DNA of 60,369 nt from Eubacteriales Family XIII. Incertae Sedis bacterium (GCA_031276135.1 JAISNR010000087.1:1-60369), one strand, 5' to 3'; shown: positions 15,723 through 60,369, counted from the first letter of the stretch. Numbers and translations are program-made. The notes: generated by a model from the sequence alone, not told the origin.

Positions 15723-15759
15723 ACAACACAAGTTTAAGTGAACCATAGGAGGAAAGAAT

Positions 15760-36468: not shown

Positions 36469-36583
36469 GTCCGTCGCAACCACAATGCAAATCGGATCTG
36501 AAAAAGCGTATCGGTGGATCTCTGACTGCGTATTGCCGGTACGCTTTTTTTATATTGGCAGATCTGTGGCGGTGAAATAATCA

Positions 36584-36976: not shown

Positions 36977-37017
36977 CACCCATCTCAAATACAATCAAAC
37001 ATAATGATCGAATTTGA

Positions 37018-40000
37018 TTATATTGTTTGTTGAAACATTGCTCCTATTTGTTCGCTCACCGAGAACATCGCAATCTTCCCGCGATGATACCGATAAACGA
37101 GGGTGGCATCGGCCATGTTGACCGCATTGTCCCCGTTCACGTCCGCCGCGAGCAGGAGGTTCCCAACCAACTGCATCTTGCCTCTGTGATGCCGGTAGAC
37201 GAGCGTGGCGTCGGCCATGTCGATCCTGTTGTCTCCGTTCACGTCGCCCAAGGTGTAAGGCAGGGCGGCGAAGTTCGCGGTAACCGTCGCATCGCCGCCC
37301 GGCATCGAGAACAGCGTGTTCGGAGAGGACGCATCCTCAAAGTCGCCGCCGTTCGAAGAGCTCCAGCCGTCGAACGCATATCCGGGATTTGCCTTCGCGG
37401 AGATCTCGATCGCATCGCCCTCAAAGTACTTCCCGCCCGCCGTTCCGACCGCGGCGCCGCCCGGACCGGCCTCGACCGTCAGCGTGTAATCGTCCTCCGC
37501 GCCCATGCCGATGTAGACAAGCGCCGTGTTGTCGCCCGTGAAAAGCTCTTCTTTATCGGCTTCCACAGTGAAGTAAAAGGCTTCCGTTTCCGCCGCGAGT
37601 TCCGTCAGATTGATCAACAGAGATTGATGCCGGGCTTCGCTTACGGCGTCGAGCGCTTCCTCGTAAAGCAATGTTCCGTCCAGGCTGTCCGCCGTAATCT
37701 TGAGTGTGGCGTCCGTTGCAATGCCGCCGAGGTTTTGTACGATCACGTTCGCATAATCGTCGCCGTCGGACAGCAGTCTTGTAGCGCCCACCGAGAGATC
37801 CGCGTAGCCGATTCGGGCGCTCCGCGCGTTGTCCGACAACTCCGTTTCCGAATCCGCCAGGACGGATATCTCAAAGTCCCGAAGCTCCGCGAGATCGGCG
37901 GGGACGGCGAACCCGTCCACGACATATTCCTTCGTTTCGCCGGGGCCGAGTCCCGCGCCGTTTATCGTCGCGACGGCATTGCCGCCCGTGTACACGTTGA
38001 TCGTATCCGCGTCCGCGCTGCCCTTGTTCTCGATTGTGAGCGTCAGCGGCAGGGGGCTTCTGGGCCGAACGGCCCCGAAGTCGTAAGATACATTCGTGAG
38101 CGCGATGTCGGTCTCGGGTTCAATCACCGCGACCTTTACGGCGGAGAGCGGCGCGTCCTCTGCGACGCCCTTCGTTTCGAGGAAGGTCAGGATCGCCGTA
38201 TCCCCGGACACAAAACCGTTCGGCGCCGATGTCAGTTCGCTCTCCGTGTCGTATATCCTGTAGGGCGGCGACCAAACCGATCCGTCGAAGGAGGACGCGT
38301 AAAAGGACGTATGCGGATCCGTCCCTTCTTCTCCCTCCGCCGTGCTTTCCCATACGATAAGGGAATTCCCTGCTTCGTCGGGAACGAGCGCAAAGCCCGC
38401 GCCGAATGCCTTCGGTCCGTTCCGGCCCGCAACGCTTTCGATGTTCGTCAGGTTGCTCGTGTACCTGATGTCGCCATCCGCATACCAAAACAGCGCGGGT
38501 ACGCCGTTCACCCTGCCGAACCGCAGACCCGTGTCCGCCGTTTCGTCTTCGGTCAGGCGCGTGATCTCACCGCTCGACGCGTTCACAACCCGTATCTCGC
38601 TGTCTTCGCCCGTGCTGCGGTTTCCGTCCCCGTCTTCGACATAGGCGATGTAAGGCGTTCCGTTCAATGTGCCCGCGTCGAGAGAGGAGATGCTTGCGCC
38701 GGGGCTCGCCGATATCCGCAAAACCGCATCGGGATTCGATGTGTACGCGTAGGCGACGGAATGCGTGTTGCCCATGCCGAACAGACCCTCCGCGCCGTCG
38801 AGTTCGTTCGTAATCCACGCGAGGAACAAGTCGTCGTCCGATACGACCGGCGTCATATCGGCATGGGCGTCATTCGTGAGGGCCGTAACGCCGGATACAA
38901 CTCCCGTGTCCGTATCGAGCTTCGCGCGGTATATCTCTGCGGCGGCGGCCGTTTCGTTCAAGCCAGTGCCTTGTCCGAGCGGTTCCTTCGCCTTCGTCCA
39001 TACGATATGAATGTCGTTTCCGACAACGGCAAGGTCGAAGTTGAAGTCGGCCGTCGAAGCTTCGCTCTCCGGAAATACCTGCACGGGCGCGCTCCAATCT
39101 TCGTTGTCGGAGGAAACGAAATACACGAGGGCCGTCCTGTTCTCCGCCGTTCTCTCTCCGTTGTCGTGCAACCAGAACACATAACTCCTGCCGTTCGCGT
39201 ACACGAGCCTCGGCATGGCGTTCGGGAATACGTAATCGAAAACCGTAAACGCGCTTCCCGGAGCGGAGGCGAGGAGCATGCTTTCGACGGCGCCGGGGCT
39301 CGTGCTCAAATCCAAGGCGCTGAGGCTTGTGCGGCGCAGGTAGTCGCGCTCTATGGGCCTGTAGGCGCCGCTGTCATAGGGGTTGAAGCCCTCGGCGGAC
39401 AACATCCGCATTGTCCGGCCGTGGCTGTCGTAGATCGTCCATGTGCCGCTCGCTATCCTCTTTTCGGCTTTGGCCATAAACGCCTGCACGTAAAGATACA
39501 TTTCCCCCGTCAGGGACACATTGTCATAGTTGTCGGAGAAGCGATGCAGCCAATCTATCGTTACCCTGCCGAATCCGCCCGCGCACAGAACGTCGCCCAC
39601 TCCAAGACCGCCGTTGATGTTGAACACAATAACAGGCTCGATTTCCCCGAGGCCGCCCGAAACACCGGTATTTTGGGCCGTAATCAGTACGCTGATTTCG
39701 ACTTTGCCGGACAAGGAAGCCTTCACTCCGATACCGACGTACACAGGCATCCATCCCAAGAAAAATTGTTGGGTATACGATGCGCCCGCCGATACGCTCA
39801 TGATCACGCCCACGTTGACAACCGTGCTTCCGTCTTCGCTGACATAACCTTCTCCGTAGCCCATGGCACTCGCTTCTATCTTTACCTTCCCCGCGCCGAA
39901 TGACTGCGGAATGCCGCCGAACGCTTTCCCCGCATAGGATTGCGCCATTGTTTTGTTGTATGTTTCGACCATTTTATCCCAATCGACATTCTTGGGTTTG

Positions 40001-43000
40001 TTGATCCCTATTTTGATCTTCCCGTCTTCCGAAACTTCGATTTCAAAAGGAACGGGGTTAAGGCCGAACTCGATTTCGGTGTCCCCTATGATCGGAATAT
40101 CCGACGAAACACCGATCTTCAATTCGCTCCCGACAGACAGCTTCCCTTCCTGTTCCTTCACGTATGCGTCCGGGTCGCTTATCCGCAGCCCCAATTTCCG
40201 AGAAACGGCGTTTCCCGAGGCGTCGATGATCCGCAGCGTTACGTTCTTGCCGGCCTCGAGTTTTTCGATGCGCAGGCCCTGCCCGAAATCCATGTCCGTC
40301 TTGCCCGTGATGATCGTAAGGTCGAAGTCGGGAGCGCCGCTTTCATATACGACCTTGCCGGACTGGATAAGCTGATAGGTTCTTACACCCTCCGGAGCCG
40401 ATGCGTTCACCGAGAAACGCAGCTTCTTCGTGTTGGTTGGTGTCTGCGGCGTCTTTTCCTTGTCGGATTTGAAGTACATGAAGCCGGAAAGCAGATCGAC
40501 CGCCCTGCCGTCGTCCGACGCGGCGTTCACGCCGAAGATGTGCGGCTTTCCGTCGTCGGGGCACAGCACGACCGTCGTCGTCGAGCCTCTCGACACCGTG
40601 CGCGCGTATTCCGCGCTCAGGTAGCCCTCCTTGGAAACCGAGAGACGCACGCTGCCCGTCAGATTCTCGAAGGACGCCAAACCGTTCTTGTCCGTCGTCG
40701 CGGTCGTCGTATTGTTCAAGACGGTGACCGAGGCACCAGCTACGGCTCGATCCTCTTCGTCCGTCACGGATACGGCAAAGCCGTTTGTGGGCGCGGGCGT
40801 GAGGATATCGCCGCCGATCGTGTAGTCCGCGTCGTTTACGGGGTTGCCCTTGATGCCTCGTTTTGCTGCGTTGTTGATCTTTTTCGCGTTGCCGTAGCCG
40901 ATCAGATAGCTGTAAGCTTTGCCGGTGCCGGTGCTTGTCGCCGTGATTCCGGATGACAGAACAAGACAGTCGTTTATGAAAACGCTTCCATGGGAATTTT
41001 CAGCATGTCCACAGATTCCTCCTGAATAAACAGTGCTATCGGATCTGTAAGAAAATATCTCTCCCGAGCTGTGGCAATCTGTTACGGCAACATCGCCGTA
41101 GCTGCTGGAAACGGCTTCACCACAAATTCCTCCTGCATAGATGGGATCCAGAGAGTTGAGGAGAGAAGAAATTTTTCCTGCATTGTTGCAATTGTTTACA
41201 ATGACTTTGCCGGAAATTCGACCGCATATTCCTCCCAGTACTACAAGTGAAGAAACATTACTTGTATTATAACAAGTATCTATGGTAATTGACCCGTACT
41301 GGTGAGCATAGGCCCAAGCGGTTATTCCACCTACATAACGATCGGAAGACGAAACATCTCCCGTATTATAACAATTGCTTATGGAAACCAAACCATAAAC
41401 AGAATCGATAATTCCGCCCGCCGTATGTGAAGAGATGTTTCCTGCATTGTAACAGTCGCTTATTGCCATTGCACCAAAATTCGACACGTATGCATAAACA
41501 TATCCGCAAATTCCTCCGGCACGGTGTGAAGAAGAAATATATCCTACATTGAAGCAATCGATTAACGAAGTTGAGCCGGAAGGCCAAACATAGCCCAATA
41601 TTCCACCCGCGCTGGGATCATTGTTAGAAACAACAGCAGCGACGGAAATGTTTCCTGCATTGTAACAGTCGCTTATTGCAACCGAGTTCGAAGAATGGAA
41701 GTAACCGCAGATCCCGCCCGCATAGGAACGGGATGATGTGGAAGTTGAAGTCGATACAGAAAAAATATTTCCCGTATTGCGACAATCGTTTATTGAAATG
41801 AAACCATCAATATCTCCGCAAATTCCTCCGACATAAACGGGAGCCAGAATTTTCCCTGCATTGTAGCAACGATTTACGGCGCAGACACTATTGGAACCTC
41901 CGCTGCCGATAATTCCACCAGAATTGGTGGAAGAAGAAATTTCTCCTGTATTATAACAATTGCCCAAAGTGAAAGAACCGCTAAGGACGCCGCATATACC
42001 GCCTGTATCATAAATGGCGGAAACTGTCCCTGTATTGTAGCAATTGTTTACACTGAAGGAGCCGGTGGCAGGAACGCGACTGCAGATTCCGCCCGCATAG
42101 GAAGAAGAAATTTCTCCCGTATTGCGGCATCCGATTATCTCGAAAGTTCCTGAAGCATCAACGTAGCCGCAGATTCCGCCCGCATAGGAAGAAGAACCCA
42201 AGCCGGAATCGGAAGCTGAAATTTCGCCTACATTGTTGCAATTACTTATGACAACGGAATCGGAAGCACTACCGTTAATCCCTCCAGCATAAGACTTGGA
42301 ACCGGTTAATGCAGCGATATTGCTTATGTTGCTGCAATGGTCTATAATGCCCGAAGAAGTGTAACCGATGATTCCTCCTGCATAAGATGCATCTGCAGCA
42401 GATGAAGATGCAGAAATATCGCCAATGTTATGGCAATCGCTTATGGCCTTTAAAGAATACGCATAGCCGCAAATTCCTCCCACATAAGAAGAACGGGAGG
42501 ACGGAGCCGAAACAAAACCCATATTATAGCAACTGTTTATGACAACAGAACCGGAAATATAACCACAGACCCCTCCGGCATAGGAATGCCTGGCAGACGA
42601 TGACGATGCAGAGGAAATATATCCTGAGTTATAACAATTGTTTATAGTAACAGAATCTGATGCGTAAGCGCATATTCCCCCGACATAGGGCGTGCCTGTA
42701 GTCGAAATGTCAATATACACGTCTTGCAAGCCTAAATTGCTGATTGTCGCACTTTTAGCATAACCAAACAAACCGTTGTAACTATATTGGGAACCCGTTC
42801 CGATAATCTTCAAATTCAGAATGCCATGTCCGCGCCCGTCGAATATCCCGGTAAAAGGTGTACTCGCATTCCCAATCGGAATCCATTACCCATCGTTAAA
42901 GCCGGACAGGTCTATATCGTTCATCAACACATAGAACCCGGACAAATTGTTCCTGATATCGGAAAGTTGCTGTGCGGTGGAGATTTGAATCGCGTTCGAA

Positions 43001-43299
43001 TCGGACGCGCCTATAGGTGCGAGGAAACCACCGTTGGAAACAATCGCTTGGAGTTCCGTCCGCCGCTGCTCGAACTCCGTCGCCATGGTTTCCAAGCCGC
43101 CTATGACGACGCGGGCCTGCGCATCCACCGAGGACTTGATGTCGGCGATGCCGTTTGCCGCCATCGCTTCGATCTCCACGCTTCCGAGCATCTGCATCCC
43201 GTCCGCACCGGCGGCGAAAACGAAACCGCTTCCGAACGGCAATAGGGCCGTGACGAGCAGTGCCGTCAGCAAAACGCATACGATCTTCCTCTTGAACAT
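37018..43299 (-). pseudogene. Giant dockerin-tailed surface protein, copy A (~2093 codons), interrupted by one in-frame TAA at 42886..42888
   Basis: ORFs 42886..43299 (signal peptide MFKRKIVCVLLTALLVTALL... to ...LSGFNDG-stop) and 37018..42813 are in the same frame and together are colinear with the intact paralogue at 50403..56366. Modules read from N to C:
- GLUG-like repeats (NCYNTGxISS...YAGGICGY)
- carboxypeptidase-regulatory-like fold
- Asp-box-like motifs (SSDNEDWS, SFDGSVWS)
- CARDB-like domain
- InlB-B/Listeria-Bacteroides repeat (NPGYAFDGWSS)
- dockerin (DVNGDNRIDMADATLVYRHHRGK...DVNGDNAVNMADATLVYRYHRGK). Confidence 0.8.
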
Positions 43300-43314
43300 A
43301 GCTTGTAATCTCCC

Positions 43315-44352: not shown

Positions 44353-44454
44353 ATTATTCACCAAATCCGAATTGTTTGACAATATATTAGATTTTCAATA
44401 TTTTCAGTCACCGGCCACCGTTCGGACGGAGGTCTAAGGTCTGTTTCAATAGGA

Positions 44455-44540
44455 AAAGCAATCTTGCCGCGATGATATCTATAAACAAGTGTGGCGTTGG
44501 TCATATTGATTGCGTTGTTCCTATTTACATTGTTCTCGAA
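44455..44540 (-). pseudogene. Decayed fragment of a dockerin second repeat (dockerin fossil)
   Basis: The minus-strand reading is ENNVNRNNAINMTNATLVYRYHRGKIAF. Compare DVNGDNAVNMADATLVYRYHRGKI at the ends of the three dockerin genes. The nucleotide alignment to 37070..37145 is clear, with mostly G/C->A/T changes. A stop lies upstream, and there is no first repeat or catalytic body. Confidence 0.7.
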
Positions 44541-44609
44541 AGGTTGTACGACAACATGACAATATTATTAATAGTGATCACAACATACGGCAATTCGAAT
44601 GCTTTGCTG

Positions 44610-45821
44610 TCACTCTTGCATTTCTTCAACAAGCCTCTCAAATACGGTTGCGACCTCGGCCCGCGTCGCATTTCCTTGCGGATCAAAAAGATTGCCCGGC
44701 TTGCCGGTCACGACGCCGGCGTTGAAAAAGATCTGTACCGCACTCTTGGCGTAATTCGCGATTCCGTCCTCGTCAGCGAATGCCGCATACCGGGCATCAT
44801 CGCGGAATTGTCTGCTCTCAAATTCGGAATGCCGAGCCAAAATCGTCACAAGATCCTGCCGCGTGATCGCAGCGTCCGGCGCGAAACGACCGCCGCCGAC
44901 CCCGTTCACGATCCCGTTCGCGCCGGCCCAAAGCACGGCGTCCGTATACCATTGCCCGTCTGCCACGTCCGCGAAGGGATTGTCTGCCGCCACCGAGGAT
45001 CCGCCTGCGCTTCGGTACAGCACCGTGACAAGCATGGCACGCGTCATCGCGGCATTCGGCGAAAACCTGTCTGCGGCCGTCCCGTTCATCAGACCTTTGT
45101 CCAGCGCGTATTTCACGGCTTCGAAGAACCAATCGCTCTCCCGCACGTCGGCAAAGGGATTCGTCTGCGGCGTCATGGCGACAGACGCGGAATCATCGCC
45201 CGGCACAGGCGTCGCATCCTCCGAACCGCCGGAAGTCGCAGACGGCGGCTTCGGCGCCGCATCCTCTCCGCTGGACGGAGTTCCGCCGCCGGATGCGCCG
45301 GAGGAAGATGCGGGAACTTCTTTGTCCTTTACAACGAATGTCGCGGGAATGACCGTATTCGGAATTCCATTGACATCCTCGTCGAGAAGCTCAATGTTCG
45401 CCAACGTGACCGTTTTGTCGCCGCCCGTCGATACCGTACAGGCAAAAGTTGCGATTTCCAACGGACCGCCGTTGTACACGGCGTCGGTGAGTCCGCCCGC
45501 GACATTCAGCCTGGGCTCTTCCTGAAAATCCGCATCCGTGAATCCCGTGCTTTCCTTAAAAGCGGACGTCACCGCTCCCGTTCCGGGTTTTACGGTCAAG
45601 CCCTCGGGAAGGATCACGTCAAAGCTGAACGCGAAAAAATTCGTGCCTTCCGCGCCGCTCATGCCGATCGTGAACCGCACCTCGTCGCCGGGCGCCGCGA
45701 CTCGCACGGACGGCGTTACCGTCAACGAGATGCTCTCCGCCGCCGAAACATGCACAATGAATGCCGCGTTTACAATCATTAATGCGGAAACAAGTACAAC
45801 AAAACGCTTTCCGATGTTCAT
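44610..45821 (-). CDS. Cell-surface anchoring protein: signal peptide + one cohesin-like module + linker + 3 SLH domains
   Basis: GGAG, then ATG at 45821 (MNIGKRFVVLVSALMIVNAAFIVHVSA). Cohesin-like ~140 aa (ISLTVTPSVRVAAPGDEVRFTIGMSGAEGTNFFAFSFDVILPEGL...YNGGPLEIATFACTV...TVTLANIELLDED...). P/S/G linker. SLH x3 (FADVRESDWFFEAVKYALDKGLMNG..FSPNAAMTRAMLVTVL; FADVADGQWYTDAVLWAGANGIVNG..FAPDAAITRQDLVTIL; FADEDGIANYAKSAVQIFFNAGVVTG..FDPQGNATRAEVATVF). Confidence 0.7.
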   Translation of the reverse strand: MNIGKRFVVLVSALMIVNAAFIVHVSAAESISLTVTPSVRVAAPGDEVRFTIGMSGAEGTNFFAFSFDVILPEGLTVKPGTGAVTSAFKESTGFTDADFQEEPRLNVAGGLTDAVYNGGPLEIATFACTVSTGGDKTVTLANIELLDEDVNGIPNTVIPATFVVKDKEVPASSSGASGGGTPSSGEDAAPKPPSATSGGSEDATPVPGDDSASVAMTPQTNPFADVRESDWFFEAVKYALDKGLMNGTAADRFSPNAAMTRAMLVTVLYRSAGGSSVAADNPFADVADGQWYTDAVLWAGANGIVNGVGGGRFAPDAAITRQDLVTILARHSEFESRQFRDDARYAAFADEDGIANYAKSAVQIFFNAGVVTGKPGNLFDPQGNATRAEVATVFERLVEEMQE

Positions 45822-45911
45822 ATTTTTCACTCCAAACGATTCTTTTTCCATAATTTTGAATAATCAATCCGCAATGCAAATCGATTTGCGAAAAAAAACA
45901 TGTTCGCAATC

Positions 45912-45942
45912 GGAACGGGCGGGCACAAAGCCCGCCCGTTCC
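45912..45942 (-). terminator. Perfect 13-bp-stem hairpin between the two cohesin genes (terminator/attenuator candidate)
   Basis: GGAACGGGCGGGC-loop-GCCCGCCCGTTCC. On the minus strand a T8 run follows 14 nt downstream. A second palindrome GCAAATCGATTTGC lies at 45877..45890. Confidence 0.4.
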
Positions 45943-45974
45943 CGAAAATCCGTATGCGCGTATTTTGTCAAAAA

Positions 45975-48900
45975 CTATTTTATCGCTTCGGCGTACCTGT
46001 GCAACACGGCGGCGGTTTCCGCGCGCGTGGCGTTGCCTTTGGGATCGAACAGGTTGCCGGGTTTGCCGCTCACGATGCCGCCGCAATACAGGGTTTCCAC
46101 GGCCTTCTTCGCGTAATCGGAAATCAGGCTCTCATCCTCAAAGGTCACATATTGCAGCGTCACGGGGAATTGCTTGCCCGAAAAATCCGCGTAGCGCGCA
46201 AGCAACGCCGCCAAATCCTGTCTCGTCACTTCGGCGTCCGGAGCGAATTTCCCGCCGCCCACGCCGTTGACGATCCCGTTTTCTTTTGCCCATTCCACAT
46301 AGGCGGCATAATATTGCCCCTGCCGCACATCGTCGAAGCCGCTCGCCGTGTACGCGGCCGCGTTCACCTCCGAAAGTCTGCCGAGAACCGTAACGATCAT
46401 GCCTCTCGTCATCGTCGCGTTCGGGCTGAACGCGTTCGCCGAAGTTCCGTTGAACAAGCCGTTGGTCACCGCGTATTCCACGTCACCGAAGAACCAGTCG
46501 GATGCGGAAACATCCGCGAACGGATTGGCCCAAGCCGATGTTTCCTCCTCCGGAGCCTCCGGATCTTGGCCGACCACATAGAAGGACAGATGGCCGGGGA
46601 GTTCAAAGCGCAGAATCTTTGTCGCGGCGTCGTAGCGGCTTGCGAGCTTTTCGCGCGCGCCGTCGTTCGCAAGGCTCCACGCGCCCGCCGGAAGCCCGCC
46701 CGCATAGGGCACGGACACCTCCATCTTGCCTTCAAACGACGTTATGCTTTGTGAACCCGAGGATATGCTTATGTCGAACACCGAATCGCCCTGCTTCACA
46801 CCCGTCCGCTGCGCGGCACTCAAGCCCGAAGCGGGAACGGATTTGACGCTTACGGACACATTGTCGCCTTGAGAAGCGGCCGCCACCGAACGCGCCGCAA
46901 CCCCGTCCAACGCCGCCGTTCCTGCGGGAAGTCTGATTTCAATGCCGGACAGGGCCTCCGCGATGGTCGCAAGCGCCGCCTTGGGCATGCTTGCGGACGT
47001 CGTTCCCGAAATCTTCGACAGGTCGAAGATCGCCGCATTGTCCGATTTGTCGATGATCTCGGCGATCTTCGCGTCGGGCAACGAAAGCGTCACATCGCCT
47101 CCCGACCTCGCATAAGAGATCGTAACGGAACCACCGGCCACTGTCACCGACGAGGGTCCCGACGAGCCGCCGGAACCGCCGGACGGCACCCCGCCCGAGG
47201 AATCGGATATCGTGAGCTTCCCGTTCGCGTAATCGGCGATCCTGTAGTTCGCTCCGGCCGTGCCGTTCAGTGTTCCGCCCGTTATCGTGATCGCGTACTC
47301 CGCCGCCGCGCCGGAATCCGCACCGTCGCATTGCAGGGCGGGCTCGACGGACATCACATCCGCCTTCGCGTCGGGGCTCACGAGACCCGATATGCTGTAT
47401 GTGTATGTCGGGAGCGCTTCGCCGATTCGGATGCTTTTGTCGTCCGCCGTCAGCGTCAGCGGCGCTTTTTCTATCGCGAAACCGAAGCGCGCGCTTCCGA
47501 TGTGTTCCGCGTCGGAAGCGGGGACCTCCGCCGTGAGAACATAGACGCCCGCCTTGACGGGAGCTTCTTCTCCGACTGCGAAATGCGTGCCGTCATACGC
47601 GTCCCCCTCGTATGAGAAAGAGAGCTCGACGGAGGGATCGGACGCGACCGCGCTCACATCGAGGGGCTTTCCGTCATAAACCTTCGTCATGCCAAGCGGC
47701 GCCGAGATGGAAACCGGCGTTTTGTCCGTTATGTTGACGGTGATCACGGCATTGGATATGTCGTAATTGTTGCTTATGAATCCGATCTCCATACCGGCTG
47801 CGGCGTCGACCGCCGCCGCGCTCGCCATGTGAACGGTGAGCATCGAACCGTCGATCTCGGCGTCGCGCGCGAAAACGGGATTGCTTGCGCCGTTTGAGAT
47901 AACGTAGGCGCTCACCTGCGACGAAGCCACGTTGCCCGGCAAGAGACCCGCGAGATCGATCGTGTAATCGGCGGACTCTTTCGATTTGACGTACAGAATC
48001 CGGGAGATGCTCGCGGCGGGTGCTTTGTCGATGACCAGATTGCCGAGAGCAAGGCCCGCAATCGAGCCGTAATTCGTCCCTGCGGCGATATCGGCCGTAA
48101 CCGCGTAACTTCCCGCGTTCGTCGGCGCCGCCGGCGAGCCGTTGTACTTCACGACGACCGCGCCGAGTCCGCTCTTGCCCGCACCCGCCGTCACCGTCAC
48201 GGCATGCGGCGCACCGTCGTAGCGCGCGGCGCCGAGGTCAAAGCTCAGGTTGTCCGTCGCCGGCGCGAGCTTGCCGATCACGAAACTTTGGCTTGCCGTG
48301 CCGGAATAATTTCCCTTGCCCGCGATCGTCAGCGTGTAGCTGCCCGCGTTCGTCTCCGTCGGCAGATTCGTGACGGTATAATCGTCCGCATCCAAGGGGT
48401 CCCCGTCCGTCACGGCATAGATCGGAGATTGCGCGGTTCCGCTATAGGCGTAGTTTCCCGTGATGGCCAGCATGGAGTTCTCAAGGGGCTTCGGGGCGAT
48501 CGTAAAGCCGCCGAGCGCGAGAGCGGGCGCAGCCGAATAATTGTCGCCCTCCGCGATCGCGACGCTTACGGCATAGCTTCCCGCATCGACGGGCGCCGCA
48601 GCCGAACCGTTGTAAGAAACCGCGCCCACGGCCCCGAAGCCCGTCAACCCGGCCTTGGCCGTCGCCGTCACGGAATGCGCGGACGCGTCGTATTGCAACC
48701 CTGTCGGCAGCGTGAAGTCGAGGTCTTCCGGCGACGGAGCTTTCTTCTCTATGGTCAGGCGCGCGGTCTTGCTTCCGATCGCCGCAGCGCTTTCGTATGC
48801 GGCGGTCACATCGTAGCTGCCCGCGTTCGTCGGCGGCGCGGCTGTCGGCCCGTAGGTCGTTGCGCCGACGCCCGCGTAGCTGTAGATGAACGTCCCGCCG

Positions 48901-50315
48901 CTGCCGTCCGCGCTCACGGCCGCAGGCAACGATTTCGGCGTTCCGTCGTAAGTGAACGCGCCGTTCTCGAACGTGATTGTATCGTCGACGATTGTCTTGT
49001 CCACAATGCTCACATTGAATGTGGTCGGCGTTGCGGCGGTGTACTCGTCGCCGCCGTCGCCGTCAACGTTCACGGCCGCCGCGTCGACTTGGATCGTCAC
49101 CGTTCCCGTGGCCTCGCCTGCGGTCAGCGTCGTGCCCGAGAGCTGCGCGTCGGCCGCGCCGGTGCTGCTTGCAATTGCATAGGACAGCGTTCCGCCGCCG
49201 CTCGCCGAGATGCCGGCGGATACGTCAAGCGCGCCGTTAATGACCAAGGTCTTGTTTGCGGCGCCGTTTATCGTCTGCGCGGCCGTGCTGATCTCGCCGC
49301 CCAGCGCGGACGCGGGCAGAGAAGACGCGGAATAGTTGCCCGCGCTATCGCCCAGAAGCGTCCAATCGCTGAGCGCGACGGTCTTCCCCGTTCCGACATA
49401 TGGGTCGGCGTATGCGCCGCTCACGGTGGCCGTGACCTTGCCTTCATCGACGGTTTCAATCTCCGTAAGCCCCGTCACGGGTACGGTCGCGGCATTCGTG
49501 CCGTCGTAAGGCTTCGTGATCGTGCCGAAGGTCGCGCCGGTCAGGTTTTTTGGCGTTATCGTAATCGTGGCGCTTTTGGAACCGAATGCTTCCGCGCCTG
49601 TGTAGGTCGCGGTCACGCTGTACGTTCCCGCGTTTGCGGGCGGGTTCGCCGTCGGCTCGTAGGCCGTACCGCCGGTTCCCGCATAACTGTAGGCATACGA
49701 TCCGCCGTCGCCGAAGTCGGTCGGCGTCGCCGTCAGGGATTTGGCGATTCCGTCGTATGCGGCGGTGATGTCCGCCAGCGTGATCTGCGCGCCGATGTCT
49801 TCTTTGACAATAACCTGTGCAGGGCTGACGAGACCCACCATATTGGAGACACTTTCATCATACAGCGCACTTTCGATCAAATTTATTGTATGGAGGCCTC
49901 TCGTGATCGCCGTGCATGTGAAGGTCGCGATGTCCAGCGGGCCGCCGCTGTATACGGCCTCATTCATTCCGCCGCTGACCATTATTTTGGGGTCTTCGTC
50001 GAAAATCGCGTCCGCAAATCCGGTGGCAGTCTTGAATGCGCCTGCTACGACACCGCTTCCCGACTTCAACGCAAAGCCGATGGGAATCTGGATTTCTATG
50101 CTGAAAGAAAAAAGATTCTTCCCTTCCGCGCTTCCCATGCTTATGGTGAAATCCACCTCGTCGCCCACTTCCACCACAGTGTCCGACGGCGTCACGGTCA
50201 GCGGGATGCTGCCTGCGGCCGTGACCGGCGCGGCCGGAAATGCGCTCACAACAAGCAACATTGCCAGCAAAACCATAAGGCTCCTTCCCCCGGCTTTTTT
50301 GATTGTTCTCTTCAT
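45975..50315 (-). CDS. Large anchoring scaffold: signal peptide + cohesin-like module + ~10 Ig-like (MBG/YDG-type) repeats + 3 SLH domains (1446 aa)
   Basis: GAGGAGGG, then ATG at 50315 (MKRTIKKAGGRSLMVLLAMLLVVSAFPAAPVTA). The cohesin-like module is paralogous to that of 44610..45821 (IPLTVTPSDTVVEVGDEVDFTISMGSAEGKNLFSFSIEIQIP...YSGGPLDIATFTCTA...). Repeated units contain ..YDG..K.L.A....GG.F.YSY.G.G.T.Y.PT..PP.NAGSY.VTA.Y. The C-terminus carries SLH x3 (FADVSASDWFFGDVEYAVTNGLFNG...). Confidence 0.7.
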   Translation of the reverse strand: MKRTIKKAGGRSLMVLLAMLLVVSAFPAAPVTAAGSIPLTVTPSDTVVEVGDEVDFTISMGSAEGKNLFSFSIEIQIPIGFALKSGSGVVAGAFKTATGFADAIFDEDPKIMVSGGMNEAVYSGGPLDIATFTCTAITRGLHTINLIESALYDESVSNMVGLVSPAQVIVKEDIGAQITLADITAAYDGIAKSLTATPTDFGDGGSYAYSYAGTGGTAYEPTANPPANAGTYSVTATYTGAEAFGSKSATITITPKNLTGATFGTITKPYDGTNAATVPVTGLTEIETVDEGKVTATVSGAYADPYVGTGKTVALSDWTLLGDSAGNYSASSLPASALGGEISTAAQTINGAANKTLVINGALDVSAGISASGGGTLSYAIASSTGAADAQLSGTTLTAGEATGTVTIQVDAAAVNVDGDGGDEYTAATPTTFNVSIVDKTIVDDTITFENGAFTYDGTPKSLPAAVSADGSGGTFIYSYAGVGATTYGPTAAPPTNAGSYDVTAAYESAAAIGSKTARLTIEKKAPSPEDLDFTLPTGLQYDASAHSVTATAKAGLTGFGAVGAVSYNGSAAAPVDAGSYAVSVAIAEGDNYSAAPALALGGFTIAPKPLENSMLAITGNYAYSGTAQSPIYAVTDGDPLDADDYTVTNLPTETNAGSYTLTIAGKGNYSGTASQSFVIGKLAPATDNLSFDLGAARYDGAPHAVTVTAGAGKSGLGAVVVKYNGSPAAPTNAGSYAVTADIAAGTNYGSIAGLALGNLVIDKAPAASISRILYVKSKESADYTIDLAGLLPGNVASSQVSAYVISNGASNPVFARDAEIDGSMLTVHMASAAAVDAAAGMEIGFISNNYDISNAVITVNITDKTPVSISAPLGMTKVYDGKPLDVSAVASDPSVELSFSYEGDAYDGTHFAVGEEAPVKAGVYVLTAEVPASDAEHIGSARFGFAIEKAPLTLTADDKSIRIGEALPTYTYSISGLVSPDAKADVMSVEPALQCDGADSGAAAEYAITITGGTLNGTAGANYRIADYANGKLTISDSSGGVPSGGSGGSSGPSSVTVAGGSVTISYARSGGDVTLSLPDAKIAEIIDKSDNAAIFDLSKISGTTSASMPKAALATIAEALSGIEIRLPAGTAALDGVAARSVAAASQGDNVSVSVKSVPASGLSAAQRTGVKQGDSVFDISISSGSQSITSFEGKMEVSVPYAGGLPAGAWSLANDGAREKLASRYDAATKILRFELPGHLSFYVVGQDPEAPEEETSAWANPFADVSASDWFFGDVEYAVTNGLFNGTSANAFSPNATMTRGMIVTVLGRLSEVNAAAYTASGFDDVRQGQYYAAYVEWAKENGIVNGVGGGKFAPDAEVTRQDLAALLARYADFSGKQFPVTLQYVTFEDESLISDYAKKAVETLYCGGIVSGKPGNLFDPKGNATRAETAAVLHRYAEAIK

Positions 50316-50402
50316 AGTTCCCTCCTCATTCAATGTTTTTGTGAAACGGATCAAATCTTCTTTGCCCTGCGGCATGTTATATCATATATGTAAACATCTG
50401 CG

Positions 50403-53400
50403 TCAATGGGCGCTGATCGAAAAAACAGTGATCTTCCCGCGATGATACCGATAAACGAGGGTGGCGTCGGCCATGTTGACCGCATTGTCCCCGTTCACGT
50501 CCGCCGCGAGCAGGTTGTTTCCAACCAGCTGCGTCTTGCCTCTGTGATGCCGGTAGACGAGCGTGGCGTCGGCCATGTCGATCCTGTTGTCTCCGTTCAC
50601 GTCGCCCAATGTGTAAGGCAGTGCGGCGAAATTCGCGATGACCGCCGCATCGCCGCCCGGCATCGTAAACAGCGTGTTCGGAGAGGACGCATCCTCAAAG
50701 TCGCCGCCGTTCGAAGAGCTCCAGCCGTCGAACGCATAGCCGGGATTTGCCTTCGCGGAGATCTCAATCGCGTCGCCCTCGAAGTACTTCCCGCCCCTCG
50801 TTCCGACCGCGGCGCCGCCCGGACCGGCCTCGACCGTCAGCGTGTAATCGTCCTCCGCGCCCATGCCGATGTAGACAAGCGCCGTGTTGTCGCCCGTCAG
50901 AAGCTCGTCCTTTTCGGATTCGACGGCAAAGCAAAAGGCTTCCGTTCCGTTTCCTTCGGCCAAATCCGTCAGGTTGATCAGCAGGGATCGATGCCGCGCG
51001 CCGCTCACCGCGCCGAGCTCCGTTTCGTACAGGACTTCTCCGTCCGGCGTGTCCGCGGTCACGCGCAGCACGGCGTCCGTTTCCGTGCCGCCGAGGTTTC
51101 GCACGATCACGTTCGCGTGGTCGTCGCCGTTTGACAGGAGCCGCGTCGCGCTCACGGAAAGATCCGCATAGCCGATTCGGACGGCCCGGGCGTTGTCCGA
51201 CAACTCCGTTTCCGAATCCGCCAGGACGGATATCTCAAAGTCCCGAAGCTCCGCGAGATCGGCGGGGACGGCGAATCCGTCCACGACATATTCCTTCGTT
51301 TCGCCGGGGCCGAGTCCCGCGCCGTTTATCGTCGCGACGGCATTGCCGTCCGCAGACACGCCGATCGCGTCAACGGCCGCGCTGCCCCTGTTCTCGATCG
51401 CGAGCGTCAGCGGCAGGGGACCGCCGGGCCGAACCGCGTCAAAATCGTAATATGCTTCCGCGAGCGCGATGTCGGTTTTGGGTTCGATCCGGGCGACCTT
51501 TACGGACGAGAGCGGCGCGTCGCCGGCAATGCCTTTTGTTTCGAGAAAGACGAGGACCGGCGTTCCTCCCGTTGCAAATCCGTTCGGCGAAGAGGTCAGT
51601 TCGCTCTCCGTGTCGCAGAGCCTGTGGGGAAGCGACCAAGCCGCGCCGTCGAAGGAGGACGCGTAAAAGGACATGCGCGGACTTGTCCCGTCCTCTCCCT
51701 CCGCCGTGCTTTCCCAAACGATGCGAGAGTTCCCCGCTTCGTCCGGAACGAGCGCGAAGCCCGCGCCGAATGCCTTCGGCCCGTTCTTGCCCGCAACGCT
51801 TTCGACATTCGTCAGGTCGGTCGTGTATTTTATGTCGCCGCCCGAATGCCAAAACAGCGCGGGCGTGCCGTTCACCCTGCCGAAGCGCGGATTGCCGTCC
51901 GCGACTTCATCGTCGGTCAGGCGCGTCTTGACGCCGTTCGACGCGTTGAGCACCCATATCTCGCCGTCCCCGTTTGTGTAAGGATCGCCGTCCGCGTCCT
52001 CCGCATAAGCGACGCACGAAACGCCGCCGAGCGTGCCCGCATCGACCGCGGAAACGGTTGCGCCCGCATTCGCGGGGATCCGCGAAACCGCGCCGGGATT
52101 CGACGTGTGCGCGTAGGCGACGAAATGCGCGTTGCCCGCGCCGAACAGACCGTCCCCGCCGTCGAGCCCGTTCACGCTCCACGCGAGGAGCGAGCCGTCG
52201 TCCGAGATCGCGGGCGTCATGTCGGCATAAGCGTCGTTCGTGAGCGCCGTGACGCCGGAAACGCTCCCCGTGTTCGTGTCGAGCACCGCACAATACATTT
52301 CTGCGGCGGCGGCTGTTTCGTCCAAGCCGGCGCCTTGTCCGAGCGGTTCTTTCGCCTTCGTCCACACGATCCGAATGTCGTTTCCGACGACGGCAAGGTC
52401 GAAGTTGAAGTCGGCCGTCGAAGCTTCGCTCTCCGGCAATACCTGCACGGGCGCGCTCCAGTTTTCGTTGTCGGAAGAAACCGCATACACAAGAGCCGTC
52501 CTGTTCTCCGCCGTCCTTTCCGGAATGTCGTGCAGCCAGAACACGTAACTGTTGCCTCCCGCGCGCACGAGCTCCGGCATGGCGTTCGGGAACACGTACT
52601 CAAAGACTGCGGACGCGCTTCCCGGCGCGGATGCGAGAAGCATGCTTTCGACGGCGCCGGGGCTTGTGACGAGGCCCAAGGCGCCGGGGCTTGTGTGTTG
52701 CAGGTAATCGCGGTCCATGAGCTTGTAGGCGCCGCTGTCGCAGGGGTCGAAGTCCTCGGCGGACAGGGGCGACGCATACGACCGGGCGTTGCTGTCGTAG
52801 ATCGTCCATGTGCCGCCGAGGATCCTCTTTTCGGCCTTGAACACAAACGCTTCCGCGAAGAGATACATTTCGCCCGTCAGGGACACGTTGTCGTAGTTGT
52901 CGGAGAAGCGATGCAACCACGCCAACGTCGCCCTGCCGGACGCGCCCACGCTCAGAACTCCGGAAGCGCCCGCGCCGCCGTCGAGGTTCAGCGCAACGGA
53001 CGGTTTCATTTCGCCGAGGCCTCCCGAAACGTACGGAGGTGTTCCGTCTGCGATCAAGATTCTGAGTTCCGCGCTGCCCGACAAGCTCGCCTTCAGACCG
53101 ACGGAGACATACACGGGAACGACGGCGACGATGAAATGCTGCGTGTACGAGGCGCCCGCCGACACCCTGACCGCGACGCCCACATTGATCGTCGCGTTTC
53201 CGTGTTTGTCGACAAAGCCTTCTCCGTAACCCATCGCGTCGGCGCCCAGGCTCTTGACCGGTCCCGCATTGAAAGACGTGCCTCCGAAAGCCTTTGTCGC
53301 ATCAATGCGCTTTTGGAATGTTTTAAAATCCTCTTTCATCTTTTCCAAGGATGTGCCTTCCGGCCTGTTGACGGCAAACCTGATCTTCCCGTCTTCCGAA

Positions 53401-56366: not shown

Positions 56367-56414
56367 GGCCTTTCCCTTTTCTTTAATACGCGGTTCACAG
56401 AACTTGCATCCGCC

Positions 56415-59400
56415 TCAGTTTCCGCCCGCCGGGAAAGAATCGATCTTCCCGCGATGATACCGATAGACGAGCGTGGCGTCGGCCATGTTGACCGCATTGT
56501 CTCTGTTCACGTCCGCCGCGAGCAGGTTGTCTCCAACCAGCTGCGTCTTGCCTCTGTGATGCCGGTAGACGAGTGTGGCATCGGCCATGTTGATCACATG
56601 ATCCTCGTTCACGTCGCCGAGCAGGAAGGTGTCCGCCGTCGTCACATGCACGGTGGCGCTGTCGGATATCTCCGGATCCGAAATCGATGTCGCCATAACG
56701 GTCAATGTCGCGGCCGTTTCGTCCGCGGCGACCGTCAGAAGTCCCGCGCCTTCGCCGGTCGAAACGACGGTCGTCTCCGCCGATGTGTTTCCGGAAACGC
56801 TCCATGCGACATCTGCGGCCTTTCCGCCCTGCGACTCGTCCGTCGCGCCGAAGGCTTGCGTTCCGCCTTTGGGAACATTCGCTTCCCTCGGCGACACGAG
56901 GATGCCGACATCTTCTCCCTTCATCTCCACTCTGACGGGCAATACGGCCGATACGCCCGTTCCGGCCAAAGCGATTGTGACGCTCGCGTTGCCCGGCAGG
57001 TTGCCTTGGATGCGGACGATCGCCTTGCCGTCTGCGGAAACCCCGCCGACGCTTACGACCTCGGCGATCAAATCGAAGTCTGATTCCGCTTCGAGAAAGA
57101 CAGGATGCGTGGGGTCGTAATTTACGACGGTGACCTCGACCTCGATCGTCCGTCCGTAATCGACGGTTACGGCTTCGGGCAGTATAAGGGACAGAGGTTT
57201 CGTGTAAGCGGCGGTTTTACTTTCCGTGATCGCGCCCACATTCGCGTAGCTCAAGACGGCGGCGCCGCTTTCGATCGTGTAATTCCCGTTTGTCGCCATA
57301 TATCCGTCGTTGTAGACGAGCTTGAATCGCTTGGCGTATACCATGCCGTCGAGCGCGCTCTCGTCGTTCGGATAATCTAGCGTATAAGGTATTCCCGTCT
57401 CCGCCGCGCTTTTCAGCACGAGCGCATTCACGCTTTCGGGTTTCATGTACTTAGTGAACGCAAGCTCCGCGTATGTGTCGTATGCGTTAAACCAAGCGAT
57501 CTGCGGTGCCTCAAGCGAAACCATGCCGACGTTGACTTCCGTTTGCGGCGGCGGCACGGGCAACCATTCGCTTTCCGTAGGCGCGTAGCCCTCCTTTTCG
57601 AAGCGCACCTGCCACAGGCCCTCGGGCGTGTCCCATGCGTAGCGGCCGTTATAATCGGTATGCAACGGGTTGTTTTGCTCATATTCCGTCGAATCCCACT
57701 GTTGCGCCGTATCCTCACCCGGTTCTGTCCACCAAGCTGTAGCTTTGACGCCTTCAATGCGGTTTGAAGTAACCGCTTCATAAACATAGCCGGAGGGGTC
57801 GATTCGCCACTGAATATTTACGGAAAAACCTGCGGATTCGCGAACGCTTCCGTCCGAGGAGCCGGGATCCGGCTCGCTCGATCCGCCACTTGATAATTCA
57901 TACGGCGCCACCAAAACATAGCCGAAACTGCTCATTACTGTTTGTTTGCTTATCGATTTGTCCCAGTTAATAACGCAGTGGTTATCGCTGTTGCAATCGG
58001 TATACGTTATATTCTCCCCATTTACCGCCGTCACAAATATACTGTGACCTGCGCCGCTTCGGCCGCCGTAACGTATAATGTCGCCGGCTTTCAAGCTGTC
58101 GAGGTTCTCTGCTGTTTGCCATTTGCGTGCAATTGGTTCGCCATAGTAGTCTTCGGCTATTTTTTCTGCATACCCCATGCATTGTTGTGATCTTCCCGGC
58201 ACGTAAGTATTGCATGTTGATTCATTTAATTCATTCTTGTGTGTGGTGGGGCAAGGTTTATCCGTCGTTCCGTCAGGATTGTTCCCAACCATCCCAACGT
58301 GATTCCAATATCTCCCATGAGGAAACTTCTCTTTCAACTGTTGCAGGTTTAATGTGCCCGCAAGCAGCGTCGCGCCACCAGAGAGGGCAGAGAATTCTCC
58401 TATATTCCCATCTTCTGATTCACTGTGCCCTTGCGCATTCGCAGCATAGAGCAATTCTGTATTGATTCGTCGACTGAACCTCACATCTCCTTGCACATCC
58501 CTGTCATCGGGCAATTCCGCATCGAGGATCCTAGCGCTCGCAATGTTGTTCGGTCGAACATATTCAACGGTAAGCGTACCCGGCAAATAAGACTTATTGC
58601 CGAAATCGAAGTATCCGACAGCAATGAATACTTCCTTTTCCACGTCCCAAAATGCTTGTATGCGCCTTTTATCATTTGCTTTCTCACTGCATACAAATAC
58701 CTCTCGTACTGCGTCCGGATTCGAAAAATTGACAGTAAACATCCAAGGGTTATTGTTCGAGGTAAATACAATCACAGGTTTCAAACCGTTCAGACTGATT
58801 AAATCGAATTCTCTTTTATCGTAAAATAATTTGAACTCGCTGAGTACGGGGGCTTCATAATCATAAATCACGTCTTTCGAAGCCGTTATCGGTATATCGC
58901 CGACGGATACGACCGCTTTGATTGTGTATGTTGTTTTATCCACGGCATTTGGAATGGTAATTTCTGCGGAATAGCCACCTGCACTGCTTGAAGTTGTCGC
59001 GGTTAACAAAGTGTCGCCGACATAAATCGACACATTTGTTTTTGCTGCGGCAATTCCCTTGACCGTGAACGTCGGCGAATTAACTTCGTCATCTGCCGAA
59101 ATGGTCAACAGAGGGCTGTCCTCCATGAGGACTCCGATAATGTCTTTAACGCTTGTGCCGTTTTTTGTGCATTCGAACGCAGCATACGCATACAACGCTT
59201 CTGTGTCAGTCGGTACAACAGAAACAAGTATCTCGTTTTTGATCAGCACTACTGGCACTGTAAGCACTCCGGTCGAAGGATTGAACGTATAATCAGTGTT
59301 TGCGTTCCCGTTTACAAGAACCGGCGATTCCGTTGTTGCTAAATTCAGATTGCTTGACAGCTTAATTGTGACTTTGGAATTGCTTACATTTTCAAGGCTT

Positions 59401-60369
59401 GTAAGCCTATAATTCACTTTGAAGATAATAGTCCCCGTTGCATTAACACTGCTGTAATCTCTTGTAAAAGCCGAAAGCTCCCGATTGATTAAAACCGATG
59501 GCAGACTTGACGGAAGATTTGGGTTGACTTCAACAGTGATCCCATTGTCAAGGGCATAGACGGTTACCAATGAATTTCGGGGCGCGATAAATTTTACTTT
59601 CGGCGAGTTTGCAAAGACGTATCGCCCGGTTATTGTGCAATAGCCCGCCTCAAACGAGACTGTTTCAAGATTGCTATTGCCGTAGAACGCATAGTCGCCG
59701 ATTGACGCCACGCCGCTCGGTATCGCGATGCTTTCGAGCGACGCGCAACCGTAAAACACATAGTCGTTGACGCTCGCGAGGTTTGCGGGCAACTCGATCG
59801 CAGACAGCTTTGCGCAACCGGAAAACGCATAATCGCCGATGTCGGTCACGCTCGGAGGCATCGTCACGCTCGTCAGATTCGAGCAACCTCTGAACGCATA
59901 CGGCGAGATGCTTTGTACCCCGTCGCTTATCACCGCGGACACAATGGAACTTTTGTACGCCTTCCAAGGCACGTTCGTTTCGTCGTAATTGCCCATCCGA
60001 CCGAAGCCCGCGACGCTCAGCGTTCCTGTGTCTTCGTCGAAACTCCATTTGACGCCGAGCTCCTCGGCCTCGTACTCCACGATGCCACTGAACCCTTTCC
60101 CCGCATATCCGCCCGCCGTGCCTTTCGGCACATACGCCACGGCCACCGACGGGATTGCGTACGATGATATTGTCGGCGCGCTCGCGCCCGTGAATATCAT
60201 TTCGGCCAGCTTTGCGCAACCGGAAAACGCATAGCCTCCGATGTCGGTCAACCCGCTTCCGAGCCTTGCCTTTGTCAGGTTTGCGCAGTCGGAAAACGCA
60301 AAATTGCCGATTGACGCCACGCCGCTCGGTATCGCGATGCTTTCGAGCGACGCGCAGCCGGAAAACGCA
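56415..60369 (-). CDS. Dockerin-tailed surface protein: BspA-type leucine-rich repeats + Ig-like region + papain-like (CHAP/NlpC-P60-like) domain + Big_2 + dockerin; the 5' end lies outside the window
   Basis: The frame stays open to nt 60369 (..AFSGCASLESIAIPSG|VASIGNFAFSDC..). LRR units read IGDYAFSGCAKLSAIELPANLASVNDYVFYGCASLESIAIPSGVASIGDYAFYGN. A Cys...His pair lies in QQCMGYAEKIAEDYYG...GDIIRYGGRSGAGHSIFV. Big_2-like VSPREANVPKGGTQAFGA...LTVMATS. Dockerin LLGDVNEDHVINMADATLVYRHHRGKTQLVGDNLLAADVNRDNAVNMADATLVYRYHRGKI. Confidence 0.75.
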   Translation of the reverse strand, partial: AFSGCASLESIAIPSGVASIGNFAFSDCANLTKARLGSGLTDIGGYAFSGCAKLAEMIFTGASAPTISSYAIPSVAVAYVPKGTAGGYAGKGFSGIVEYEAEELGVKWSFDEDTGTLSVAGFGRMGNYDETNVPWKAYKSSIVSAVISDGVQSISPYAFRGCSNLTSVTMPPSVTDIGDYAFSGCAKLSAIELPANLASVNDYVFYGCASLESIAIPSGVASIGDYAFYGNSNLETVSFEAGYCTITGRYVFANSPKVKFIAPRNSLVTVYALDNGITVEVNPNLPSSLPSVLINRELSAFTRDYSSVNATGTIIFKVNYRLTSLENVSNSKVTIKLSSNLNLATTESPVLVNGNANTDYTFNPSTGVLTVPVVLIKNEILVSVVPTDTEALYAYAAFECTKNGTSVKDIIGVLMEDSPLLTISADDEVNSPTFTVKGIAAAKTNVSIYVGDTLLTATTSSSAGGYSAEITIPNAVDKTTYTIKAVVSVGDIPITASKDVIYDYEAPVLSEFKLFYDKREFDLISLNGLKPVIVFTSNNNPWMFTVNFSNPDAVREVFVCSEKANDKRRIQAFWDVEKEVFIAVGYFDFGNKSYLPGTLTVEYVRPNNIASARILDAELPDDRDVQGDVRFSRRINTELLYAANAQGHSESEDGNIGEFSALSGGATLLAGTLNLQQLKEKFPHGRYWNHVGMVGNNPDGTTDKPCPTTHKNELNESTCNTYVPGRSQQCMGYAEKIAEDYYGEPIARKWQTAENLDSLKAGDIIRYGGRSGAGHSIFVTAVNGENITYTDCNSDNHCVINWDKSISKQTVMSSFGYVLVAPYELSSGGSSEPDPGSSDGSVRESAGFSVNIQWRIDPSGYVYEAVTSNRIEGVKATAWWTEPGEDTAQQWDSTEYEQNNPLHTDYNGRYAWDTPEGLWQVRFEKEGYAPTESEWLPVPPPQTEVNVGMVSLEAPQIAWFNAYDTYAELAFTKYMKPESVNALVLKSAAETGIPYTLDYPNDESALDGMVYAKRFKLVYNDGYMATNGNYTIESGAAVLSYANVGAITESKTAAYTKPLSLILPEAVTVDYGRTIEVEVTVVNYDPTHPVFLEAESDFDLIAEVVSVGGVSADGKAIVRIQGNLPGNASVTIALAGTGVSAVLPVRVEMKGEDVGILVSPREANVPKGGTQAFGATDESQGGKAADVAWSVSGNTSAETTVVSTGEGAGLLTVAADETAATLTVMATSISDPEISDSATVHVTTADTFLLGDVNEDHVINMADATLVYRHHRGKTQLVGDNLLAADVNRDNAVNMADATLVYRYHRGKIDSFPAGGN

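Follow-up and report, generated by a model that had tools for sequence, protein, structure and literature searches.

What do cohesin- and dockerin-like modules do in a bacterial locus in which no carbohydrate-active enzyme (CAZyme) is recognised? Catalogues of such modules outside fibre degradation go back more than 15 years, and most of the modules have no assigned function. The question is raised here by a run of minus-strand genes from an Eubacteriales Family XIII. Incertae Sedis bacterium (GCA_031276135.1, JAISNR010000087.1:1-60369). The window analysed is this entire 60,369-bp contig, and the locus is known from this single contig. A model that saw only the DNA (the sequence-only reading) had proposed that wall anchors with S-layer homology (SLH) domains and one cohesin each display dockerin-tagged giant proteins that are not CAZymes. 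The core of this idea is borne out by the cohesin fold of the anchor modules, by genuine dockerins and SLH domains, and by a conserved gene order. We consider it probable that the locus encodes SLH-anchored, single-cohesin display of dockerin-tagged GLUG and leucine-rich-repeat (LRR) giants, with a predicted cohesin-dockerin binding for which the adjacency of the genes in five loci speaks. The open reading frames (ORFs) of the locus are, in the order of transcription:

56415..60369, minus strand: LRR cargo gene, 5' end missing at the contig end
50403..56366, minus strand: cargo B, 1987 amino acids (aa), intact
45975..50375, minus strand: long anchor (anchor 2), probable start at 50315, 1466 aa
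44610..45851, minus strand: short anchor (anchor 1), probable start at 45821, 413 aa
43315..44382, minus strand: multi-pass membrane protein, 355 aa, in a low-GC stretch (0.43)
37018..43299, minus strand: cargo A, a paralog of cargo B
36596-36994, minus strand: seventh ORF, a truncated SLH-gene fragment of 132 aa with a partial SLH domain, adjoining an IS21 element

The ORFs lie where the sequence-only reading had placed seven same-strand genes with short gaps. Their strand and spacing (gaps of 15-227 nt) stand, but the seventh is a truncated SLH fragment and cargo A is interrupted. The LRR gene has no stop in the first 56 codons read inward from the window end. A promoter/terminator scan found no intergenic terminator, terminator-like sites being no commoner than in shuffled sequences. 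Promoter-like sites were more frequent than in shuffles (24 versus a mean of 11.8), yet none stood at an obvious operon start.

Each of the three cargo proteins has a C-terminal dockerin of two segments, internally symmetric and almost the same in all three, located as follows:

56457..56621, minus strand: dockerin of the LRR cargo, DVNEDHVINMADATLVYRHHRGK ... DVNRDNAVNMADATLVYRYHRGK; Pfam Dockerin_1
50445..50609, minus strand: dockerin of cargo B; Pfam Dockerin_1, E 7.2e-13
37087-37251, minus strand: dockerin of cargo A; Pfam Dockerin_1, E 8.6e-12

With the LRR cargo at E 1e-11, the three tails score 45.3-49.0 bits against a Dockerin_1 gathering cut-off of 22.9, and the canonical C-terminal dockerins seen in the sequence-only reading are thereby upheld. 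Type I dockerins (PF00404) consist of two segments of ~22 residues, each with a 12-residue EF-hand-like Ca loop (D/N at positions 1, 3, 5, 9, and 12) followed by a helix, and this arrangement is found in the window dockerins. The Ca loops of the two segments are DVNGDNRIDMAD / DVNGDNAVNMAD in cargo A and B and DVNEDHVINMAD / DVNRDNAVNMAD in the LRR cargo. In A and B, DVNGDNRIDMAD is followed by the helix ATLVYRHHRGK and DVNGDNAVNMAD by ATLVYRYHRGK. By sequence, the cargo B dockerin matches the solved dockerins 8x39 (1.3e-8) and 8ajy (2.8e-6) in the PDB, and the LRR cargo dockerin likewise matches solved dockerins. Their best PDB match, the dockerin 8x39, belongs to a protein that was deposited as 'Serine protease'. 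A dual-binding mode is known for type I dockerins (for example 2vn5/2vn6, which are also among the structural matches of the cohesin-fold module described below), and the near-identical segments are compatible with it.

Both anchors begin with a signal peptide and end in three SLH domains, as the sequence-only reading had it. Their modules, all on the minus strand, are arranged as follows:

45312-45740: cohesin-fold module of the short anchor, which also has a signal peptide
44622-45158: three SLH domains of the short anchor, joined to the module by a Ser/Gly/Pro linker
49794-50219: cohesin-fold module of the long anchor, which also has a signal peptide
46536-49793: stalk and linker of the long anchor
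45987-46526: three SLH domains of the long anchor

Pfam recognises the SLH domains at E 8.5e-32 (short anchor) and 1.1e-30 (long anchor), and TRAE-type motifs are visible in their translations. Stalk and linker together span about 1085 aa. The stalk had been described as ~1000 aa of Ig repeats; its repeats turned out to be YDG and MBG rather than classical Ig (MBG_3 1e-32 in five stretches, YDG 1.8e-13, and MBG_2 6.8e-11). The make-up of an SLH-anchoring scaffoldin, namely a signal peptide, at least one cohesin, and three SLH domains, is found in both anchors if the cohesin is taken by its fold.

That fold was assessed with an AlphaFold2 model of the anchor-1 module, built from an alignment with six metagenomic orthologs (predicted local distance difference test, pLDDT, 85; predicted template-modelling score, pTM, 0.81). 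In a Foldseek search of the PDB, ranks 1-30 were all cohesins, with E-values from 8e-9 to 4e-6, probability 1.0, TM-scores of 0.5-0.75, and sequence identities of 10-19%. They include the cohesins of two SLH anchors, OlpC (4dh2) and OlpA (3ul4), and a type III cohesin of R. flavefaciens, together with non-cellulosomal cohesins from A. fulgidus (2xdh) and C. perfringens (2jh2/2vo8/2w1n). The modules of the two anchors are 50% identical to each other, and in an exhaustive search a profile of both retrieved 242 representatives at E<=1e-3, most of which carry the module directly after the signal peptide. When 100 of these representatives were scanned with Pfam, Cohesin was found in 18, SLH in 12, and Dockerin_1 in 10. 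The metagenomic protein P0154 provides a bridge: its Pfam Cohesin match (residues 43-174, 25.8 bits versus a cut-off of 24.1) falls on the stretch that the profile matches (36-176), and its module is 38% identical to that of anchor 2 (BLASTP, E 2e-17). On the other hand, the giant proteins P0121, P0141, and P0152 (4832-5934 aa) contain dozens of DUF11-type repeats that are matched by the first ~60 residues of the profile. The N-terminal strands of this cohesin subfamily are therefore similar to a common repeat motif, and for such matches the E-values of whole proteins overstate cohesin homology. Because of the predicted fold and the transitive homology, we regard the modules as members of a divergent cohesin subfamily that is overlooked by current hidden Markov models (HMMs).

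The gene layout is conserved as well. Dockerin gene(s) followed by a long anchor and a short anchor recur on independent metagenome contigs at 34-68% identity. Contig L004 (38% module identity) repeats the window order with a GLUG-dockerin gene, an LRR-dockerin gene, a 1422-aa YDG/MBG/SLH long anchor that starts with the module, and a short anchor, while in L010 the gene of a small dockerin protein is followed by that of an S8 peptidase, then by a long anchor of 1414 aa and a short anchor. This peptidase (4022-5488; Peptidase_S8, subtilisin-like) has no dockerin of its own. In L003 the end of a dockerin ORF lies directly upstream of the module gene, and in L001, L006, and L007 the short anchor is directly preceded by the long one. 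Orthologs of the long anchor are present in L004, L006, L007, and L010, and L006 is 68% identical to anchor 2. In L009 a module-YDG-MBG protein adjoins a 2625-aa GLUG/Big_2/cohesin/dockerin protein (7900-15777), and a Pfam-cohesin protein and a 3421-aa LRR/PKD/dockerin protein are also encoded. Counting the window, L003, L004, L009, and L010, there are five independent loci in which module genes adjoin dockerin genes. The recognition helix reads MADATLVYR[HY]HRGK in the window, MQDVLL[IV]YQxFRGR in L004, and IGDVDxLYQxxRGR in L010. Dockerin helices are thus the same on unrelated cargo inside one locus and different between loci, a pattern expected from co-evolution with a locus-encoded, lineage-specific cohesin.

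Full-length relatives of the short anchor, with signal peptide, module, and three SLH domains (P0002-P0007), were found only in metagenomes and metagenome-assembled genomes (MAGs), one of them from Oscillospiraceae. The GTDB species representatives gave a single weak match, L002, an Acutalibacteraceae MAG. Some relatives bear the same class of cargo fused straight to SLH domains, as in many LRR_5+SLH proteins. Another relative, P0148, combines two modules of the same cohesin subfamily, Cys-rich repeats, and a dockerin in one protein. The adaptor-like architectures of P0148 and of the 7900-15777 protein of L009 hint at multi-tier assemblies in some lineages.

The cargo that these anchors would display is built largely of repeats. 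The modules of the LRR cargo and then of cargo B, all on the minus strand, are:

~59541-60369: BspA-type LRR_5 repeats of the LRR cargo
57990-58190: weak CHAP/papain-like region of the LRR cargo, which further contains Ig-like modules and the C-terminal dockerin
~54267-56069: GLUG beta-helix of cargo B, which starts with a signal peptide
53931-54146: CarboxypepD_reg of cargo B
52827-53909: orphan core of cargo B
~51615-52577: beta-propeller of cargo B with two Asp-box-like motifs
50877-51599: CARDB-like region of cargo B
50622-50846: InlB B-repeat of cargo B, followed by the dockerin

LRR_5 scores 4.9e-42 in Pfam, and the LRR region matches solved BspA-like LRR structures in the PDB. GLUG scores 6.9e-16 on cargo B, and CarboxypepD_reg and Flg_new_2 (the InlB B-repeat) are common to cargo A and B. 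Of the cargo modules that the sequence-only reading had listed, GLUG, InlB-B, and BspA-type LRR are therefore above their cut-offs, whereas CARDB (22.4 bits versus 22.7) and the papain-like (CHAP) region fall below. Its claim that the locus is free of glycoside hydrolases (GHs) and carbohydrate-binding modules (CBMs) agrees with our searches: no GH, CBM, or other carbohydrate-active family was found on any locus protein with Pfam, NCBIfam, or relaxed scans of unassigned segments, and no carbohydrate-active module was present among the PDB sequence matches. Matches in NCBIfam were fragmentary and confined to the LRR, SLH, and dockerin portions of unrelated models. Identity between cargo A and B is 25-55% over the GLUG region and 50-94% over the C-terminal two thirds. 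The central ~760 aa of cargo B are near-orphan: the single database homolog of this core is P0268 (a 978-aa metagenomic protein cut off at a contig edge), 37% identical and found with residues 820-1580 as query. P0268 joins an A/B-type core to an N-terminal BspA LRR region in place of GLUG repeats, a case of domain shuffling between the two cargo classes of the locus.

Taken together, the modules suggest the following mechanism, in which parts familiar from cellulosomes would be put to a new use, the display of adhesin-like proteins. The two secreted anchors would attach non-covalently to the cell wall through their three C-terminal SLH domains, and each would present one N-terminal cohesin, the short anchor near the wall and the long anchor at the tip of its ~1100-aa stalk. 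The upstream genes would supply very large secreted cargo, namely the GLUG beta-helix/propeller/CARDB giants A and B and the BspA-LRR/CHAP-like protein. Their dockerins would plug Ca-dependently into either cohesin, possibly in two orientations, and the cargo would most likely bind host, particle, or other cells, with some hydrolytic activity possible. More tentatively, and at slightly below even chances, we propose that the locus represents a CAZyme-free operon family of uncultured Oscillospirales-like Firmicutes, in which a lineage-specific dockerin on several giant GLUG/LRR surface proteins and two anchors with Pfam-invisible cohesins at two heights form a modular, non-covalent 'adhesin-some' whose cargo is swappable by gene turnover while the anchors stay as they are.

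Several observations weigh against this display system. Pfam Cohesin (PF00963) is silent on both ~140-aa modules even at E<=10, so that of the four families named in the sequence-only reading Dockerin_1, SLH, and GLUG score and Cohesin does not; the modules which that reading called cohesin-like are cohesins by predicted fold and by the P0154 bridge, not by Pfam score. Alignment of the modules with P0051, a Pfam-positive cohesin+SLH protein, was not significant in hhalign. In line with this, isolated modules gave only noise matches to Pfam at E<=10 (GHMP_kinases_N, PKD), and neither a single-sequence phmmer search nor an eight-sequence profile matched any cohesin among PDB sequences (only antibody light-chain noise at E>0.01). 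A word-indexed homolog search with the module alone returned zero matches, the full-length anchor being needed as query. The cargo raises further difficulties. Cargo A, which had been taken as one intact product, has an in-frame TAA at 42886-42888 (codon 138) in place of copy B's GAA (Glu). This stop follows 137 codons, and the 1955 codons behind it are unbroken, the last 1931 of them as the listed ORF, in a frame of 2093 codons. This TAA is a candidate recent nonsense mutation (making A a pseudogene), sequence error, or read-through site. The adhesin role is suggested by module types and is weaker than the display mechanism; the propeller could be sialidase-like and the CHAP-like region a hydrolase. 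Finally, the genome may hold further cohesins or CAZyme-dockerins beyond this 60-kb contig, and the terms 'non-cellulolytic' and 'self-contained' of the sequence-only reading reach further than the evidence of one contig.

The cargo is where the best-surviving alternative applies. It keeps the same display mechanism and makes the cargo mainly enzymatic, with a sialidase-like or other propeller hydrolase in A/B and a CHAP/NlpC-P60 peptidase or amidase in the LRR protein; the anchors would then hold a rack of enzymes acting on glycoprotein, mucin, or peptidoglycan at the surface. We judge it somewhat unlikely. The A/B propeller has its two Asp-box-like motifs, and the best Foldseek matches of its model are the sialidases NanB and NanA (E about 1e-7), but the model itself is of low confidence: for residues 925-1590 of cargo B, pLDDT is 48 overall and 55-89 in the propeller, with the first 340 residues unmodelled, because only one homolog (P0268) was found. 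Moreover, prolyl-oligopeptidase, TolB, and the non-enzymatic CyRPA propellers match this model about equally well. Copy A weakly matches the BT_1020-like N-terminal beta-propeller family in Pfam, yet sialidase/BNR and GH families are silent at E<=1. GH33 sialidases are defined by a sialidase/BNR HMM, a six-bladed propeller, a conserved FRIP, and an Arg triad; the sole RIP motif of cargo B reads RIS in cargo A. The CHAP match of the LRR cargo (E 0.0057) contains candidate Cys (QCMGYA) and His (GHSIFV) residues and scores 17.6-18.9 bits, below the cut-off of 26. The S8 peptidase gene of L010 also speaks for enzymes near such anchors, but most of the mass of the cargo consists of GLUG, LRR, CARDB, and Ig-like repeats.

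A second alternative, which we regard as unlikely, makes the locus an accessory of a larger cellulosome- or amylosome-like system, in which CAZymes encoded elsewhere share the dockerin type and dock on these SLH anchors, and the GLUG/LRR proteins are non-catalytic passengers as in Ruminococcus flavefaciens. Our evidence covers one 60-kb contig, and the sialidase-like matches of the propeller would suit such a system. In addition, R. flavefaciens FD-1 does place LRR, transglutaminase-like, and peptidase modules on dockerin proteins (PMC2930009), and many Pfam-invisible cohesins found by structure-based surveys belong to real cellulosome and amylosome producers (bioRxiv 10.64898/2026.02.05.704116). 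Against it, no GH or CBM was found beside the anchors in L003, L004, L009, and L010, where L004 was scanned with Pfam, L009 and L010 were read from precomputed Pfam records with some genes unannotated, and L003 spans only 2.3 kb. The window has neither a multi-cohesin scaffoldin nor a CBM3, and the combination that marks a cellulosome or amylosome, dockerin-bearing GHs together with a multi-cohesin CBM scaffoldin, was likewise lacking in L004, L009, and L010. The few relatives with taxonomy are Oscillospiraceae and Acutalibacteraceae MAGs. The last alternative, that the cohesin-fold modules are generic beta-sandwich tip or stalk domains (ligand-binding or CLIPPER/DUF11-like) and that the dockerins use a cohesin encoded elsewhere, fits the silence of Pfam Cohesin, the DUF11-type matches of the profile, the CLIPPER stalk domain 9ifr at Foldseek rank 31 (also a weak profile match), and the tip-stalk-anchor layout that the long anchor shares with fibrillar adhesins (PMC9210967), but is very unlikely given that 30 cohesins outrank every other fold, that homology to the Pfam-positive P0154 is full-length, and that module genes adjoin dockerin genes in five loci.

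Outside the locus, the contig carries two mobile elements:

1 to about 32400, plus strand: conjugative element of the Firmicutes integrative and conjugative element (ICE) type, left end missing at the contig end
33863-36533: IS21-family element, with istA at 34158-35732 and istB at 35608-36468

The conjugative element carries a TraG/VirD4 coupling protein, TrbL, a C-5 DNA methylase, a VirB4-like ATPase, an M23+NlpC/P60 wall hydrolase, a CD1107-like protein, a sortase, topoisomerase III, and a MobA/VirD2 relaxase. It further encodes a 2168-aa thioester-domain/SpaA-repeat adhesin with 18 SpaA stretches. The IS21 element is bounded by 28-nt imperfect terminal inverted repeats (33863-33890 and 36506-36533), and no target-site duplication is evident around it. 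SLH-containing ORF fragments lie on both of its sides (36596-36994 and 33038-33820), and the element therefore probably disrupts the gene of an SLH protein. The possibility that the display locus is cargo of the adjacent conjugative element was considered and not adopted; the evidence points neither way, and the SLH-gene fragments and the IS21 element lie between them. Within the locus, the 355-aa membrane protein received no family assignment in Pfam or NCBIfam scans. It is missing from the syntenic loci, L004 having other genes past the short anchor, and is therefore probably not a core part.

With anchors and cargo side by side, two cohesins and one type of dockerin make up a minimal system that can be tested directly and from which the function of non-cellulosomal cohesin-dockerin pairs could be learned. 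Since standard HMM annotation misses this cohesin subfamily, the number of such systems in gut and other anaerobic metagenomes is probably underestimated. Should the cargo prove to be adhesive, the locus would show a way in which Firmicutes with S-layer-type walls can swap very large adhesins that are not covalently anchored.

Among known systems, the short anchor is closest to OlpA, OlpC, and SdbA of C. (Acetivibrio) thermocellus, with which it shares the layout of signal peptide, one cohesin, linker, and SLH domains, and the OlpC and OlpA cohesins are among the best structural matches of its module. 'SLH-anchoring scaffoldin' is a standard class (PMC11557425), to which the short anchor corresponds. 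It differs in that the window module has only the 10-19% identity to its Foldseek cohesin matches noted above and escapes Pfam Cohesin, in that the other anchor has a ~1100-aa stalk, and in its neighbours. The partner dockerins of this class belong to cellulosomal enzymes or scaffoldins; the neighbours here are neither cellulases nor a primary scaffoldin and carry GLUG, LRR, CARDB, and Ig-like modules.

The cargo, for its part, recalls the group 4 proteins of R. flavefaciens FD-1, with dockerins on LRR and papain-superfamily-like proteins, head-to-tail genes, and conserved C-terminal parts. The dockerin proteins of FD-1 include 28 LRR modules, and one operon comprises four transglutaminase-like dockerin genes and one LRR-dockerin gene; a cell-surface-structuring role was suggested for some dockerins already in 2010 (PMC2930009). 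In contrast to the window, FD-1 is a cellulosome producer that anchors through sortase and ScaE rather than SLH, its operon is without dedicated anchor genes, and no GLUG/propeller giants have been described for it. Rumen dockerins are in any case not confined to fibre degradation (PMC6487960).

Cohesins and dockerins outside cellulosomes are known from every domain of life (Peer 2009, as cited in PMC9012536), and for ANME archaea it has been proposed that S-layer-linked dockerins serve to fix proteins on the cell surface (PMC9012536). The pairs of A. fulgidus, C. perfringens, and ANME resemble the window in using cohesin and dockerin outside plant-fibre degradation. However, the partners are glycoside hydrolase toxins in C. 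perfringens and mostly solute-binding proteins in archaea, and for none of these pairs has a conserved operon been described in which two SLH anchors come after the cargo genes. The sequence-divergent Ruminococcus cohesin families that Minor et al. found with AlphaFold in a 2026 preprint (10.64898/2026.02.05.704116) are similar to the window modules in that the fold is kept while sequence methods fail. Those systems are cellulosomes and amylosomes with CAZyme cargo, and SLH is unmentioned there. A targeted literature search of limited coverage found no published description of such an operon. What appears to be new is the combination: a compact conserved operon that brings together a long and a short SLH anchor, dockerin-tagged GLUG and LRR giants, and a Pfam-invisible cohesin, with no carbohydrate enzyme recognised by family searches.

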